NCBI GenBank assembly: GCA_964437495.1
Contig: CAYTGV010000005.1
Span: 759 to 64,758 of the forward strand
Length of the DNA: 64,000 nucleotides
Source: an uncultured Planctomycetia bacterium
GTDB taxonomy: Bacteria > Omnitrophota > Gorgyraeia > B26-G9
Direction: 5' to 3'
This document shows, piece after piece, positions 4,726-59,849 of this stretch. Within the stretch, counting starts at the first letter, position 1. The number at the start of each line of letters is the position of its first letter. The translations under genes were made by a program, and so were the position numbers. The notes beneath the pieces were generated by a model. It worked only from the letters and a program-made list of their open reading frames with translations. It had not been told where the DNA came from and did not search any database.

Positions 4726-5090
4726 TCTTTCTTTATTCCACCCCGGGGGTGGAATTTTGGTTGATCTAATAAAAAAAGATAGCAAAACTGCGTTCCTCGT
4801 CCTTTAATTCTACTCAGGACGAATCCTGAGCCTGTCAAATGGATTCGGCAGCTCGGCTATCTTGGCTTGCTTATCGCGTTATCGATACGCTCGGCGATCT
4901 TTGCATTAGCTTTAGACCCGTAGCTTTGCGCCCTCAAGTTTTCCTGAGTTTGCCATTTCGGTTTTTATACTTATTAAAATAATTTAAAATCTCTTTAGTT
5001 ACTGTAATTAAGTATACCATGCCTTTTTACGCTTGTCAATAGCCGGGCCTGGCCAGGAATAAGGTCATATTTTAATGATAGGTTAAGATA

Positions 5091-30629: not shown

Positions 30630-30687
30630 ATCCTCCCATTTCTACTAAAATTAACTACTTGCTTATGTGTTTCCGAAAATTAAGAAC

Positions 30688-30715
30688 ATTCTACTATAAC
30701 AGAAAAAAAAAGCAA
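30688..30715 (-). promoter_or_regulatory. candidate sigma70 promoter for hppA
   Basis: Minus strand TTGCTT, a 16-nt spacer (includes an A9/T9 run), TAGAAT; GGGAGGA SD before the ATG at 30629. Confidence 0.4.
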
Positions 30716-30818
30716 GGAGTAAGTTTAGAAATTTCCAGAAGCATTGCACCGCAGGACATAATACAATAAAAATAATTGGGTTAGAATTACTCTTTAGAAA
30801 AACTAAAGATCAGAAGAA

Positions 30819-31169
30819 CTATATCTTATTTTTCTTAGCAGGGATACTCAGCTTCAGCATCTTTGAATCATTAAAATCACTTTTTATTATTAAATGACGC
30901 ATACCATCTTTATCTTTTTTTACTGTTCCTGAGCCAAAAATCTTTTCCACGTCTTTTGATTTATTTTTCCATTTTCGCCTGAAGGCCATCCAATTATTAT
31001 CGAGTTCCTTTATTAAATCAAATAATTTTCTCTCGCTAAGATTTATTTCATTAGGATCATCTGGATATCTGCCTACAAGTTCATGCATTTCACTCAGATA
31101 TGAGTCAAACACATCCTCTTCCCAAATCTCTTTTTCCATATTATTTTTTATAATTCTATTTTCCATCAA
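30819..31169 (-). CDS. hypothetical protein (116 aa, acidic N-terminus, lysine-rich C-terminus)
   Basis: Open frame only; no recognisable motif. It lies in the tRNA-Met-proximal accessory stretch. Confidence 0.4.
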   Translation of the reverse strand: MMENRIIKNNMEKEIWEEDVFDSYLSEMHELVGRYPDDPNEINLSERKLFDLIKELDNNWMAFRRKWKNKSKDVEKIFGSGTVKKDKDGMRHLIIKSDFNDSKMLKLSIPAKKNKI

Positions 31170-31398
31170 TTTCTCTCCCTACTACAAGTTTAATGATTTT
31201 TTCAATGATTGTCAAATAAAATATAGCTTAATTCCACTCACTTTTACGTGTAACTAAAGAATTTATCTAACTTTTCTCACGATATGTTCCCTAAAAAAAA
31301 TAATCAAAAAAAATTAATTAAACGTAACTCTTTATTTTACAATTAGTTAGAATTGAAATTTATGAGCAATCAGGCAAAACACTAATAAAAATATCCGC

Positions 31399-31623
31399 CT
31401 ATTCTGGGGGATTTTCATTTAAAGTTTTAAGTAATTTTTCAATATTACTGTTTAAAGTAAAAATATTAACATTAAGCGATTTTAACGTTTCTGTTTGCCT
31501 TCTGCTCAACTCTGCCAGCAAGGCCTTCTCAATCGAAGTCTCTACAGTACGTGCAATTGAATCAATAATTTCCCGATCAGAGAGAGAACTTAACTCATTT
31601 AAATTCATAATATTAGGCCTCAT
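31399..31623 (-). CDS. hypothetical small protein (74 aa)
   Basis: Open frame only; predicted helical; no recognisable motif. Confidence 0.35.
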   Translation of the reverse strand: MRPNIMNLNELSSLSDREIIDSIARTVETSIEKALLAELSRRQTETLKSLNVNIFTLNSNIEKLLKTLNENPPE

Positions 31624-31686
31624 ATCTATTAGATTTAGTTAGTCTATATATCCTGCAATCATCTGCTTGAACTCTTAAGAATATAC

Positions 31687-33012
31687 TTATATATCCATTA
31701 AAAGCTGATTCATGGGCGATTTTTCAAAATTCTCGCCAAATTTCTGAATTTTTTCTGAGATCGCCTGGAGTTCTTTACTTTTTGTGATAGGAATATTATC
31801 CACCCCTTTATTTTCTAGGGCATCAATAACATTTTTTATCGTAAGTGAATGAGGATCTCTGGCCGGTTGAAAAGCAATTTCACGGCTATCCAGAACTTTT
31901 ACCTCACTTATCACACCACCTTGCTCAAGCTCATATAAGATATCTCTCAGAAGACGCACAGGTATTTCCAATATATGAGAAATTTCAATAGCTGTTAATG
32001 GGGACATAGCTTGCGAAAAATTTTTAATGATCAGTTGAGCTGTTCTCAAACTCATTAATCTCTTAAAAGAATAACTCGTATTCAAGCAATCATGCTCAAA
32101 TTCATACATCTCAACATTTTGATGCGCAAATGCTATTTCTGAGCCGAAAAGCATAACCAGCCAGCTGATCTGCATCCAAATCAGGAATAAAGGCAAAGCT
32201 GCAAAACTACCGTAAATCGCATTATACTTTGCCGCTCCAACCTGAAATGCAATATACGCCCATTGAACAACTTGATAGATTGAACCAGCCACAACCCCGG
32301 CCAAAACACCGGATTTAAGATTAACCTTAGTATTAGGCATAAAAACATATATAAAGGTAAACAGCACCCAGATTATGGAATAAGGCAAAAACTTAAGCAG
32401 GAAAAATATCAGAGGGCTCACATATCCTAAAAGAGATATTTTCTCTGTTATAAACGTTATTTGTGTTGTAATAAAAACCGTAAGGCCGCTGGATACGATT
32501 ATAAGCACCGGACAAATCAGTAATACTGACAAATAGTCAGTTAATTTTCTTGATATCTTGCGAGTTTCTTTTATGCCCCAAATATCATTGAAAGATTTTT
32601 CAATATTTCCCAAGACCTTTATTACTGTCCAGAATAAAACCGCGATACCAACTCCGGCCACTACCCCGCCTTTTGTATTCTCAAGCAGGGTATAGGCAAA
32701 GTCAATCACCTGCTTAAGCACTGCCTCTTGTCCGGGTAATTTTTCCATTATCTGGGTCTGTAAAAGCTTTTCAAAACCAAAACCCTTTGCTATCCCAAAT
32801 GCCATTGCAAAAACAGGCACTATAGACAATAAGGAATAGTATGTCAAAGCAGATGCCCTAAGCTGGCATTTATCTTCATTAAACCCACGAAATGAAAGCA
32901 GAAATACTCTCAAGGGCTTGATAATTAAATACTTTTTCTTGGGGATATCCTTAAGACGGATTCGCCAAATATCGGTTTTTATAAAATTGATCAATTTATG
33001 TAGCATGGTCAC
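31687..33012 (-). CDS. YihY/BrkB family membrane protein with C-terminal winged-helix-like extension
   Basis: LTYYSLLSIVPVFAMAFGIA and a six-TM YihY core, then a ~130 aa soluble tail (MSPLTAIEISHILEIPVRLLRDILYELEQGGVISEV) that looks HTH-like. Confidence 0.8.
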   Translation of the reverse strand: MTMLHKLINFIKTDIWRIRLKDIPKKKYLIIKPLRVFLLSFRGFNEDKCQLRASALTYYSLLSIVPVFAMAFGIAKGFGFEKLLQTQIMEKLPGQEAVLKQVIDFAYTLLENTKGGVVAGVGIAVLFWTVIKVLGNIEKSFNDIWGIKETRKISRKLTDYLSVLLICPVLIIVSSGLTVFITTQITFITEKISLLGYVSPLIFFLLKFLPYSIIWVLFTFIYVFMPNTKVNLKSGVLAGVVAGSIYQVVQWAYIAFQVGAAKYNAIYGSFAALPLFLIWMQISWLVMLFGSEIAFAHQNVEMYEFEHDCLNTSYSFKRLMSLRTAQLIIKNFSQAMSPLTAIEISHILEIPVRLLRDILYELEQGGVISEVKVLDSREIAFQPARDPHSLTIKNVIDALENKGVDNIPITKSKELQAISEKIQKFGENFEKSPMNQLLMDI

Positions 33013-33224
33013 CTCACTCTGATTAAGTTACTATTTATTAAAATAAGTCTAAAGCTTACTGTTTATAATACATTCACCAAAGGGTTAGGTCAATCAAAAA
33101 AGGGATAGCTTGAAAACTACCCCTTTTTTGATATCATAAATACTTTAAACTAACAGGCAAATAGCCGTTTAGCTTATCGCTACAGAAAAAAGCTTTAGAA
33201 CTACTCGTTCTCCGCTCCTAACCA

Positions 33225-33362
33225 TCATATTTTTAAAGGATGTCTATCAACAGCCTTCTTCAACTGCTTATCATCGTACCCCAGATAAAACCTGGCAGTA
33301 GTAGAAATATCAGCATGCCCAGCCAATAGCTGGATATCTCTGAGATTAACCCCACCACGGCA
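33225..33362 (-). pseudogene. tyrosine recombinase (integrase) C-terminal fragment, ~46 codons, truncated
   Basis: Minus-strand translation RGGVNLRDIQLLAGHADISTTARFYLGYDDKQLKKAVDRHPLKI-stop matches the integrase C-terminal catalytic-Tyr box (LLGHxxIxTTxxY). There is an in-frame TAA two codons upstream and no upstream integrase sequence in any frame. Confidence 0.6.
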
Positions 33363-33718
33363 TTAACGTACAAAATGTATACTTAAGCATCTGTGGGGTC
33401 TCACACACCGTATATCTTTAAATAAACCATATAAGCCTTGCTCTGTCAATGCTGAAGTTTTCGGTTACAAGAAAAGGTGGTTGATGAATTTTCAAGCGAA
33501 TTTACACTATTTTAGTTAAGGATGCTATTATTTTGAGGGAACCCACAGGGCGCGAGGACTGTCTGATCCCGCTGCATTTAGGCGGGAGAGTTCCGCAGCG
33601 CCAAAAATCATAGCATAGTTAACGGCCCTGCAAGGGAAAATAGTGTTGAGCGTAAAATTTAGCAAGCACCTTACAACAAGCCGCTAAACATGCTATAAGC
33701 TACTTAGTAGATATGAAT

Positions 33719-33756
33719 CCTCCTTCGCCAAAGGCTTCGGAGGACAGGTCCTCCGT
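33719..33756. repeat. short copy of a palindromic repeat family (one arm plus the stub of the second arm)
   Basis: cctccttcgccaaaggcttcggaggacag gtcctccgta; ~27/30 identical to the arm of the 59476-59578 element. Confidence 0.45.
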
Positions 33757-33933
33757 ATTTTTTACCTAAAGCCGACCAATATATTATAATATCTCAGGTC
33801 ACGAAGTGACACCTTTTTAGGGGGTACAGATTTTTAAAGAAGAGGGGGATATAACTCCCCTTCTTCTTTGACTAAGAATTCTTCCCTTTGGAAGGGGGTG
33901 AACCCAATAGGGGGAAACCTCGTTTCCCCTAAT

Positions 33934-33970
33934 GGAAAAAGGCTCTCAGAAAACTGAGAGCCTTTTATTT
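33934..33970. terminator. bidirectional intrinsic terminator abutting the tRNA-Met 3' end
   Basis: aaaaa GGCTCTCAG aaaa CTGAGAGCC ttttatttt; a 9-bp stem flanked by A and T runs. Confidence 0.55.
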
Positions 33971-33971
33971 T

Positions 33972-34050
33972 TGGTGACGGCGGTTGGAGTTGAACCAACG
34001 ACATAACGGGTATGAGCCGTCCTCTCTACCAGACTGAGATACGCCGTCAC
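33972..34050 (-). tRNA. tRNA-Met (anticodon CAT; elongator Met, or Ile2 if lysidinylated)
   Basis: Cloverleaf read by hand: acceptor GTGACGG/CCGTCAC, D-loop AGTCTGGTAGAG, anticodon loop CTCATAC, T-loop GGTTCAACTCC, encoded CCA. Confidence 0.85.
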
Positions 34051-34189
34051 TTTAGAAGTTAAAAGTAAAAAGGTAAAAGTAAAAAGTCAAAAGCATTAAA
34101 ACTATTTTTAAAAACTCTCTGTCTCAACCACTTCTGGCTAATAGAAGTTTATCCTATACCGAGCAAATTTCGTGAGCTCTGGTACGGGA

Positions 34190-34218
34190 CCGTCACTTTA
34201 GAAGTTAAAAGTAAAAAG
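34190..34218. repeat. direct duplicate of the tRNA-Met 5' end plus 22 nt of upstream flank
   Basis: ccgtcactttagaagttaaaagtaaaaag occurs at 34044-34072 and again at 34190-34218; the second copy is preceded by a degenerate D-arm-like stretch (ctctggtacggga). Confidence 0.5.
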
Positions 34219-34340
34219 TCAAAAGTAAAAAGTTGTAAGCTAAAAACCAATATTTTTAACTAACACTACAAGAGATGTGAAAATTATTTTAACGGATTTT
34301 ATTTACTGATTTTTCAAGGATATTAAAAAATAAGTAAATA

Positions 34341-34531: not shown

Positions 34532-35509
34532 TTAGGCTAAATCTACTTTTTCCAAAGCCATACCTACTAGTTCATTAAGTAGCTCCATAAGCTTTTCAGA
34601 GAATCTATTCGGCTGCTTTGCCGTTCCCACACTGATAACGCCGAGTATTTCATGATGATGAAAAACCGGGATAACAAACGCAGATTTAATTTTCGGTTTA
34701 TGCATCCGCAGGCGAAGTTCACGATCTGATAACTCTTCGTTAATAAAAAGTCCCTTTTTCTTCTGTATGGCTGAGCCGGCAAGACCTTCTCCGGGTTTTA
34801 TCTTGGTATTATTGATAATATCCTCACTTAGGCCTGTTGCGTCTTTAATAGAAAGTTCCTGAGTGCTTTTCTCAAATAACATCATTGAGCCGCGCTCTGC
34901 ATCGCAAAGCTTCATCGCCAGCTCAAGAAATGTCTTCAGCAACATACCAACCTGCTCTTTGCTAAATAATACCTTTTCCTTTTCACCAGAAGTTGTCAGA
35001 GCGCCCAGAGTCTTCATGAATTTAGTTATACCTGTAGAGAAATCAACTACGCTCTCAAGCTTTGCAGCACTCACTGCCGGCAGCTCATTAAAACAGTTGA
35101 AAAACTTCTCCTCATCAACTCCTGAATCCTGTATACGCTGTGTAAATTTAATATCCTTTTTCCCGTCTTTAAAAACAACCGGTCCCAAAATCAGGAAAAC
35201 AGGCTCAGCATTATCAAGAATTATCGGCACAGAAAAGTTCGCAAGCCCCAAAGGACATATATTTTCATAATATTTTTTAGGCTCTTGTTTTTTAAGAAAT
35301 GCGGCAAGCTTTGGATACCACTGAATGCATTTTTCACTTGCGGTATCCGAGGAAGCAACAGCCTCACTGCAGACTGATGGCATATTTGAGGGGCGTACAA
35401 CTTTCTCTCCTTGAACATCAATTGTGCGGATACCCATCCCCACGATTGAAGATAAAGTATCTTGTACATTCTGCCAGTGATTGTCGCCAATTATTTCGCT
35501 GAATTTCAT
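34532..35509 (-). CDS. GAF domain sensor protein with N-terminal ligand-binding-type domain (no output domain)
   Basis: C-terminal GAF fold (DAERGSMMLF...PGEGLAGSAI...SAFVIPVFHHHEILGVISVG); an N-terminal ~170 aa Cys-containing sensory domain of the PocR type is my tentative call. Confidence 0.65.
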   Translation of the reverse strand: MKFSEIIGDNHWQNVQDTLSSIVGMGIRTIDVQGEKVVRPSNMPSVCSEAVASSDTASEKCIQWYPKLAAFLKKQEPKKYYENICPLGLANFSVPIILDNAEPVFLILGPVVFKDGKKDIKFTQRIQDSGVDEEKFFNCFNELPAVSAAKLESVVDFSTGITKFMKTLGALTTSGEKEKVLFSKEQVGMLLKTFLELAMKLCDAERGSMMLFEKSTQELSIKDATGLSEDIINNTKIKPGEGLAGSAIQKKKGLFINEELSDRELRLRMHKPKIKSAFVIPVFHHHEILGVISVGTAKQPNRFSEKLMELLNELVGMALEKVDLA

Positions 35510-35522
35510 GAGATTAAAAGAT

Positions 35523-35599
<77 letters not shown>

Positions 35600-59762: not shown

Positions 59763-59849
59763 ATAATAGTTTAAAGTTTTAAGCCTTTAAGGTCCAAAGT
59801 ACTATGTTGAATACTTTTTACTTTTAACTTTTTACTTTTAACTTAATAG

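Follow-up and report, generated by a model that had tools for sequence, protein, structure and literature searches.

We describe here a stretch of 64,000 nucleotides (nt) from an uncultured bacterium of the Omnitrophota (contig CAYTGV010000005.1 of assembly GCA_964437495.1, positions 759 to 64,758), referred to below as the window. Most probably it carries the immobile fossil of a small integrative element, which extends over about 0.83 kb (33137-33971) on the 3' side of a tRNA-Met(CAU) gene. This tRNA gene is the integration target, and the remnant is an ordinary, heavily decayed tRNA-island fossil, a common genomic scar. A first-pass annotation had proposed the remnant of a tRNA-Met-associated element and counted a YihY/BrkB membrane protein and two small proteins, here called p69 and p115, as its surviving cargo. 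The tRNA-associated remnant is corroborated by an empty site, by differing insertions in related genomes and by an intact integrase relative directly after a tRNA 3' end; the cargo part had to be given up. As corrected, the annotation shows a remnant of 0.83 kb rather than 3.4 kb, in which a 46-codon open reading frame (ORF) is a piece of a pseudogene.

The pseudogene is that of a tyrosine integrase. The 46-codon ORF (33225-33362, minus strand) encodes the catalytic-tyrosine box ...LRDIQLLAGHADISTTARFY..., as had been described, but the statement that nothing lies upstream of it does not hold: the database relatives P0001-P0003 and a DNA alignment extend the homology to 33491, in shifted frames. 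Two deletions break the reading frame, one of 2 nt near 33359 and the other of 19 nt at 33403/33404. The stub plus 12 upstream residues matches the Phage_integrase profile PF00589 with E=0.0022 (uncorrected score 18.2 bits), and the frameshift-corrected translation of 80 amino acids (aa) reaches 30.6 bits (E=3.4e-7, profile positions 128-166 of 172 only), which passes the gathering cut-off of 27.1 bits. The motif PQ(M/V)LRHTF of the relatives reads PQMLKYTF in the window; the change of LRH to LKY indicates loss of the second catalytic arginine (Arg II, now Lys). With box I absent, LRH altered and the frame broken twice, no single frame of the remnant holds the complete catalytic set, and only GH...Y is kept. 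A guessed box I motif at about 33620 found no Pfam or tblastn support and was dropped.

An exhaustive profile search recovered an intact relative of 300 aa, P0024 (E=4.8e-41), to whose residues 218-300 the remnant is 60% identical over 83 aa. No trace of P0024 residues 1 to about 204 is found in the window, hence the earlier description as a deletion remnant of a decayed tyrosine integrase is correct. The first 28 nt of the short P0024 contig (L193) are a tRNA 3' end, with T-arm and acceptor sequence; 157 nt after it, on the same strand and reading away from the tRNA, begins the integrase gene, whose stop lies 1060 nt from the tRNA end. A single deletion of about 620 nt in the 5' part of the integrase gene would account for the spacing in the window. 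Viral contigs probed with the integrase gave only distant, generic integrases. Fragments restricted to the C-terminus recur in databases for this integrase family (P0001, 67 aa; P0025, 86 aa; P0026, 83 aa; and locus L164), with differing breakpoints around residues 205-247. This variety fits a loss that begins at the tRNA-proximal 5' end of the integrase gene, and some of the fragments may be genes cut by contig ends. In another locus (L163, 287-1474) the gene of a 395-aa protein lies just downstream of a related integrase gene that is cut by the contig start; the protein has a weak PADLOC match to a TIR effector (E=5.7e-5), which suggests defence cargo on that element.

In the window all genes between about 26.7 and 45 kb lie on the minus strand. 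In the order of transcription, enolase, FtsB/DivIC, an S1-domain protein, an initiator-type tRNA-Met, a PocR-GAF protein and tRNA-Met(CAU) are followed by a gap of 959 nt and then by YihY, p69, p115, hppA and tilS. The tRNA-Met(CAU) gene, first placed at 33972-34050, stands with its end corrected to 34048, and it has orthologues in L186, L187, L195 and L197, four of the related loci introduced next. Exact-protein look-ups of the window proteins returned solely 100%-identical contigs, so that no strain variation could be used; the contigs of L081 and L182 are 100% identical to the window, which corresponds to a Candidatus Omnitrophota metagenome contig (ENA ERZ27316679, k141_229908). Among species-representative genomes searched via hppA, the best of the matches listed was 75% identical, without shared neighbours or a tRNA, and therefore uninformative; the best hppA relatives among the matches listed were Omnitrophota metagenome-assembled genomes. 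YihY as an anchor in metagenomes gave 80 full-length homologues and no synteny. The informative relatives were reached via homologues of p115 and p69 (52-78% identity). They comprise L186, L187, L189, L190/L192, L191 and L195, which are six genomes from the clade of the window, and one outgroup (L197/L198).

Comparison of these loci presents the interval between tRNA-Met and YihY as a hypervariable integration hotspot; the variable DNA falls between the two genes in every case. In L195 the interval is 191 nt long and consists of a terminator and the YihY promoter only. This is the empty site: it contains no integrase and neither of two recurrent modules, F, which adjoins the tRNA, and E, which adjoins displaced tRNA 3' fragments. 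The earlier annotation had suggested looking for an empty site with tRNA-Met directly beside hppA; this arrangement occurs in none of the relatives, and the empty site has tRNA-Met beside YihY instead. L187 holds 771 nt, made up of 256 nt of foreign sequence, E, a copy of the tRNA 3' end, a shortened F and, placed as in the window, some 50 nt of the same part of the integrase, with 97% identity to the window over a core of 30 nt. In L186 the interval measures 2115 nt (F, E, a truncated 3' fragment, a DUF1059 gene and a GDSL-like, lipase-like gene). In L189 it is at least 2.3 kb long, with a 284-nt unit of E, 3' fragment and F present twice (99% identity) and followed by a Fic gene, which PADLOC assigns to SoFic (E=2e-42). 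L191 has at least 3.1 kb with an integrase fragment, three unknown genes and a Gp49/HTH_3 pair. The outgroup has tRNA-Met, 158 nt, and then RadC-p112-hppA, without YihY or p69. A tRNA-Met hotspot with turnover of defence and toxin cargo is thus documented in a poorly studied candidate phylum.

Displaced tRNA fragments are found in the relatives. The copy in L187 is 29 nt long, identical to the tRNA 3' end in 28 of 29 positions, and located 335 nt downstream of the tRNA between E and F. All displaced fragments read TTCATAT, whereas the true tRNAs read TTCAAAT or TTCAACT. An abrupt junction after ...TTCATATCCAC is common to L186, L189 and, weakly, the window. The sharp end of the displaced fragments of L186 and L189 after ...ATCCAC suggests that the junction falls in the T-stem.

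Read from the tRNA, the window contains F, a diverged trace of E with its core, a unique spacer of 214 nt, the C-terminal third of the integrase and a spacer resembling one in L191. F ends at one discrete junction in the alignment of the window, L186 and L189, and its BLAST identity to the relatives is 89-97%. Because F is missing from the empty site of L195 and comes after the displaced fragment in L187 and L189, it would represent an arm of the element. The diverged E ends in a truncated, tRNA 3'-like core, GCGAAGGAGGATTCATATCTACT (33706-33728), which matches the E/3'-fragment junction of L189 in 19 of 23 positions at the expected distance from F; as a displaced T-loop fragment it is a weak candidate. 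A promoter scan places a promoter-like GTGTCA-18-TATAAT (33812-33783) over the start of the diverged E. The 214-nt spacer has no BLAST match in any of the loci, no Pfam match in any frame and no Rfam match. On the far side of the integrase, the spacer that follows its stop is probably the right-hand limit of the remnant, as judged from L191, where the counterpart of 33137-33215 comes after the three cargo genes. Beyond it, the terminator-like hairpin and the YihY promoter-like site form the conserved chromosomal flank.

Some minor features of this interval may be mentioned. The 214-nt spacer contains an imperfect inverted repeat of about 18 bp, TATAGCATGTTTAGCGGC / GCCGTTAACTATGCTATA, within 33600-33700 and with arms about 50 nt apart. 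Folding of 33526-33765 compared with shuffled sequences gave z=-3.5 for the minus and z=-1.9 for the plus strand. A riboswitch-like reading of this segment was rejected in view of the plus-strand value and the lack of a homologue and of a downstream gene. Rfam searches of the window region and of the variable regions of L186 and L187 returned tRNAs only.

We envisage that a tyrosine integrase of about 300 aa, of XerC/D size, would have recombined the attachment site of the element (attP) with the segment of the tRNA gene from the T-loop to the 3' end, with the crossover at ...TTCAAATCCAC in the T-arm of tRNA-Met. The element would supply a replacement tRNA 3' end and displace the old one, and its integrase gene would have been located about 160-200 nt past the tRNA and read away from it. 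Repeated insertions, tandem accretion and deletions within the genus may have left F by the tRNA and E by the displaced fragment as conserved arms, and the same turnover may have produced different cargo in each species as well as integrase stubs. In the window only F, the diverged E/core trace, the 214-nt spacer and the last third of the integrase are left, the integrase being inactivated by the loss of about 204 N-terminal codons, the two frameshifting deletions and the exchange of arginine for lysine. What is observed directly is that the integrase gene is a pseudogene, that the hotspot is polymorphic and has an empty site, and that relatives carry displaced 3' fragments; the position of the crossover, the origin of F and E from the element and the order of events are what we infer from them.

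Several observations weigh against this account. That F is an arm, and not old chromosomal flank, is judged from parsimony and from one genome with an empty site, L195. The match of the 33706-33728 core is no better than the best shuffle (26 versus 28) and hence not significant alone. The best repeat of the tRNA 3' end elsewhere in the window is an 11-mer, which is at chance level; the lack of a clear far-end attachment (att) site is also what marks the remnant as immobile. No similarity to integrases is seen in the 302 nt that separate F from the remnant of the integrase gene, so that the remnant did not simply decay in place and at least one deletion or replacement is needed. No tRNA acceptor end follows the ...CCAC junctions, which simple tandem accretion does not predict. 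The outgroup has neither YihY nor p69 at the locus, and these genes may thus be an older gain through the same hotspot. Finally, the integrase fragment lies 480 nt from the tRNA 3' end, past F. This distance, the lack of an att repeat in the window and the unrelated surroundings in which L164 and L163 carry C-terminal fragments of this family would suit a chance event, in which a Xer-like or transposon recombinase left a stray piece that landed or decayed near the tRNA. We regard such a coincidence as very hard to credit, because the intact relative directly follows the 3' end of a tRNA, the same interval of L187 and L191 contains fragments of this integrase, and this interval shows empty/occupied polymorphism together with displaced tRNA fragments.

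A further variant concerns the units that carry F and E but no gene. These could be non-autonomous miniature integrative elements, mobilised in trans by an Omnitrophota XerC/D-like integrase at the T-loop of tRNA-Met, although we consider this unlikely. The F/E units would then be an integrase-dependent analogue of miniature inverted-repeat transposable elements (MITEs), and a conserved pseudo-5'-tRNA hairpin upstream of the tRNA, described below, would represent another such footprint or else a small RNA. Neither the E core nor the F end gave a match when viral contigs were scanned for the exact patterns. In L189 (1-417) the contig opens with the tandem gene-less units of E, a 29-nt tRNA-Met 3' fragment and F; this array could be a miniature integrative element or a product of unequal crossing-over.

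We turn from the fossil of the element to the genes beside it. The YihY/BrkB protein with its extra tail and the two small proteins of no recognisable family are all present as first described, the start of the smaller one being corrected (the two had been given as 116 and 74 aa). YihY, p69 and p115 appear, from gene order and divergence, to be resident genes that flank the hotspot and not cargo of this element, because they are present in all six relatives, including the empty-site L195, and lie outside the variable interval. All six clade genomes share the collinear order YihY-p69-p115-hppA-tilS, with RadC or a 180-aa gene as a variable member between YihY and p69. YihY is among the best conserved genes of the locus, and its amino acid identities follow those of its neighbours: identity to the window is 91-94% in the clade and 83% in the outgroup for hppA, 83-84% and 57% for PocR-GAF, 66-71% and 42% for tilS, and 63-73% and 52% for p115; YihY (83-92%) and p69 (61-72%) are found in the clade and are absent from the locus in the outgroup.

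An island that spans the DNA from tRNA-Met to the hppA promoter, with these three genes as its surviving cargo, is accordingly quite improbable. Such an island would agree with the absence of YihY and p69 from the outgroup interval, which implies a gain or loss there at some time, with the low G+C of 0.27-0.31 over the two small genes and with YihY homologues that occur elsewhere in Omnitrophota in unrelated contexts. However, YihY-p69-p115-hppA is kept also in L195, which has no trace of an element, and p115 adjoins hppA in the outgroup too, so that for p115 the proposal is largely refuted. YihY diverges like a core gene, with 51-67% identity to the 80 other Omnitrophota homologues, and loss of synteny is general here, as hppA likewise has no conserved neighbours in distant genomes. 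The three genes should therefore be treated as resident and lineage-conserved.

The 439-aa YihY matches PF03631 with 192 bits (E=1.9e-56, cut-off 33.7) and TIGR00765 with 121.9 bits (cut-off 73.15). Its tail of about 140 aa gives weak Rrf2/winged helix-turn-helix matches (E=0.02 in Pfam, 0.006 in NCBIfam), far under the cut-offs, and a PDB sequence search found no relative of the tail. The 80 metagenomic homologues from Omnitrophota are full-length and include the tail. Against NCBIfam PRK04214, "ribonuclease BN/unknown domain fusion", the protein scores E=3.9e-33. It resembles this family in having a PF03631 core followed by a tail of such length, with the profile aligned through residue 368; it differs in its score of 115 against an equivalog cut-off of 500 bits, and the putative winged-helix nature of its tail rests on weak Rrf2 matches.

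For p69 and p115, gap-free alignments and many invariant columns argue that both are real genes. p69 has 7 homologues (68-78% identity, no internal indels), is syntenic in the genomes of the same clade, and is predicted by AlphaFold to fold into two short helices and one 40-residue helix (predicted local distance difference test, pLDDT, 92.7). p115 has 13 homologues (52-73% identity) without internal gaps and with 30 invariant columns; its AlphaFold pLDDT is 60. For neither protein did the PDB yield a significant fold match, and neither falls into a family of Pfam, NCBIfam or PADLOC. p115, or p112 in the outgroup, is always the gene directly upstream of hppA, outgroup included, and this constancy suggests that the two genes are transcribed together and that p115 is functionally linked to the H+-pyrophosphatase. 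The gap between p115 and hppA is 189 nt in the window (30630-30818) and 17 nt in L197 (9943-9961). p115 merits a functional look.

Between YihY and p69, a RadC-family gene is present in L187 (4498-4944) and L186 (6543-7055), and the outgroup has one ahead of p112 (L197, 9028-9534). In the window it is deleted, and about 36 nt of its 3' end are left just past the YihY stop (31647-31682). As other relatives carry an unrelated 180-aa gene at this position, it constitutes a second small variable spot.

Upstream of tRNA-Met(CAU) lies a duplication whose value as an island footprint is ambiguous: it is specific to this locus and common to two relatives that have longer 5' tRNA fragments. The exact 29-nt repeat (34044-34072 and 34190-34218) occurs 2 times in the window against 0.00 expected and widens to 66 nt at 83% identity, which upholds the duplication reported in the first-pass annotation, except that it carries 5 tRNA nt and not 7. 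Within the 29 nt, the final 14 form the unit TTTTACTTTTAACTT, a dispersed AT-rich motif with 6 matches in the window against 0.14 expected. All six occurrences of the AT-rich 14-nt unit TTTTACTTTTRACTT, part of an array of TTTTNAC heptads, stand beside tRNA genes (34056-34084 and 34202-34230 on the minus strand, 59816-59844 on the plus strand). The two copies at 59816-59844, in the tRNA-Lys/tRNA-Glu spacer, are inverted relative to the direction of the tRNAs, and a similar AT-rich run is found in the distant Omnitrophota locus L001 (4271-4300). A role of the heptads as a promoter UP-like element or as binding sites for a protein is conceivable. The objection that the duplicated segment might be a generic repeat at tRNA flanks applies to its AT-rich part, but not to the CCGTCACTTTAGAAG part and the pseudo-tRNA segment.

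The distal copy is followed by a pseudo 5' tRNA fragment, which consists of GACGG, a 29-nt hairpin (34157-34185) and a degenerate D-arm-like hairpin (34131-34147). The D-arm-like nature of this stretch, already suspected, is confirmed by L187, which carries CTCAGCCCGGTAGAG at the same position, identical to its own tRNA D-arm. Over 98 nt the distal copy is 91% identical to L187, compared with 79% for the adjacent coding DNA. In L187 it runs into a perfect D-arm and then into a leader of about 140 nt, X5. L186 has a third copy with the first 24 nt of the tRNA, then the 140-nt X5, bounded by 31-nt direct repeats (96.9% over 32 nt), and then the complete tRNA. The PocR-GAF gene and the tRNA are 55 nt apart in the outgroup, and L195 has about 130 nt past the PocR-GAF terminator-like region, including the structured X5; both are without the duplication. 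The window, L186 and L187 have 483-674 nt between the two genes, with one to two extra copies of the AT-rich array, CTAAAGT and GACGG.

Slippage, tandem duplication and homologous recombination within an AT-rich promoter/leader region of heptad repeats, and not an att footprint, may have produced the 29/66-nt duplication with its pseudo 5' tRNA fragment, and we give this possibility a chance a little short of even. Almost half of the repeat (14 of 29 nt) is the dispersed motif; heptad copy number varies among the window, L186 and L187; the three arrangements can be interconverted through deletions between the repeated GACGG...GTAGAG segments; and neither integrase nor cargo is found upstream of the tRNA. 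Slippage or homologous recombination explains the differences in copy number equally well. The clean layout of L186 speaks for the contrary, as it corresponds to a catalogued configuration (PMC4383910), and so do the closer match of the distal copy between the window and L187 than of the adjacent coding DNA and the lack of the duplication in L195 and the outgroup, which indicates a derived, insertion-like state. A 5' tDNA fragment upstream of the tRNA gene is a known minority configuration, seen in 159 of 3919 islands (PMC4383910).

Two further features of this leader were noted. X5 is located directly upstream of tRNA-Met in L186 (1507-1644), L187 (1861-1999) and L195 (253-314) and is missing from the window; it forms three hairpins, one stem having a G-U-compatible change, and has no Rfam match. 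The hairpin GTACCAGAGC...GCYCGGTA that interrupts the pseudo 5' tRNA fragment occurs in the window (34157-34185, minus strand), in L186 (1362-1390) and in L187 (1803-1831). A shorter, inverted copy is inserted in arm E of L186 (2008-2028, opposite strand), and the hairpin may be a small mobile palindromic insert.

Genomic islands and prophages that target tRNA genes are the closest known systems. Such islands regenerate the gene and displace a fragment of it, and T-stem crossovers (the Williams-type class), tandem arrays and a minority of 5' fragments have been catalogued in Islander (PMC4383910). The locus resembles such islands in the remnant of a tyrosine integrase by the tRNA gene, the regenerated tRNA with a 3' fragment downstream (L187, L189, L186), the T-stem junction, the tandem arrays, the occupied/empty polymorphism (191 nt in L195 versus 959 nt in the window) and the defence or toxin-antitoxin cargo of relatives. 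The configuration agrees as well: the 3' fragments of the relatives lie downstream of the tRNA gene, whereas the 5' fragments, which measure 5 nt in the window and 24 nt in L186, lie on its upstream side and share its orientation. The differences are that the window holds about 0.83 kb with one third of an integrase, a pseudogene of residues ~205-300 of 300 with two frameshifts, and would not pass the Islander filters. It also has no clear displaced fragment (matches of at most 11 nt and the weak 19/23 site), while L187 and L189 (two copies) do. The host is an uncultivated member of the Omnitrophota, and the terminal junctions are without an acceptor end. The fossil leaves knowledge of how tRNA islands work unchanged.

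In P4-type arrangements the integrase, of about 400 aa in the P4 family, is encoded directly downstream of the target tRNA and in the same direction. The integrase of L193, on the tRNA strand and close to the tRNA end, follows this scheme, and the remnant in the window has the same orientation. In contrast, P0024 is XerC/D-sized, with Phage_int_SAM_1 and Phage_integrase domains, and has PQxLRH in place of the usual PHxLRH.

Table. Positions of features around tRNA-Met(CAU) in the window
Feature	Position	Strand	Remarks
Initiator-type tRNA-Met	35523-35599		
PocR-GAF protein gene	34532-35509		
Distal repeat copy, then pseudo 5' tRNA fragment	34131-34255	minus	repeat copy at 34190-34255
Proximal repeat copy	34044-34109	minus	AT-rich heptad array, CTAAAGT and first 5 tRNA nt
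tRNA-Met(CAU)	33972-34048	minus	intact; elongator Met or Ile2 type; ARAGORN, Infernal; Rfam RF00005, 63.4 bits
Module F	33794-33971	minus	terminator hairpin of the tRNA (33937-33966) and two more hairpins
Diverged counterpart of module E	33706-33793	minus	
Organism-specific spacer	33492-33705	minus	214 nt, no ORF
Tyrosine-integrase pseudogene	33225-33491	minus	residues ~205-300 of the 300-aa relative P0024
Spacer 3' of integrase stop	33137-33224	minus	33137-33215 common with L191 (BLAST, 74% over 82 nt)
Inverted repeat of 19 bp	33093-33132		bidirectional terminator-like hairpin; homologous in L187, L189 and L195
YihY promoter-like site	33093-33065		TTGACC-17-TATTAT; beside the hairpin at 33093-33132
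YihY/BrkB membrane protein	31687-33006	minus	439 aa, C-terminal extension; PF03631
p69, small helical protein	31399-31608	minus	ATG start at 31608, not 31623
p115, small conserved protein	30819-31166	minus	

Two observations lie outside the hotspot. After tilS, the outgroup has a cluster of HTH_3, N6_N4 methyltransferase, ResIII helicase and SMC-like genes (L197, 13766-19943) in place of the HD-domain gene of the window; this cluster probably represents an island for restriction-modification or defence. In the window itself, 4843-4963 on the minus strand matches the Rfam family of the c-di-GMP-I-GGC riboswitch aptamer with 62.2 bits, compared with a gathering score of 59.

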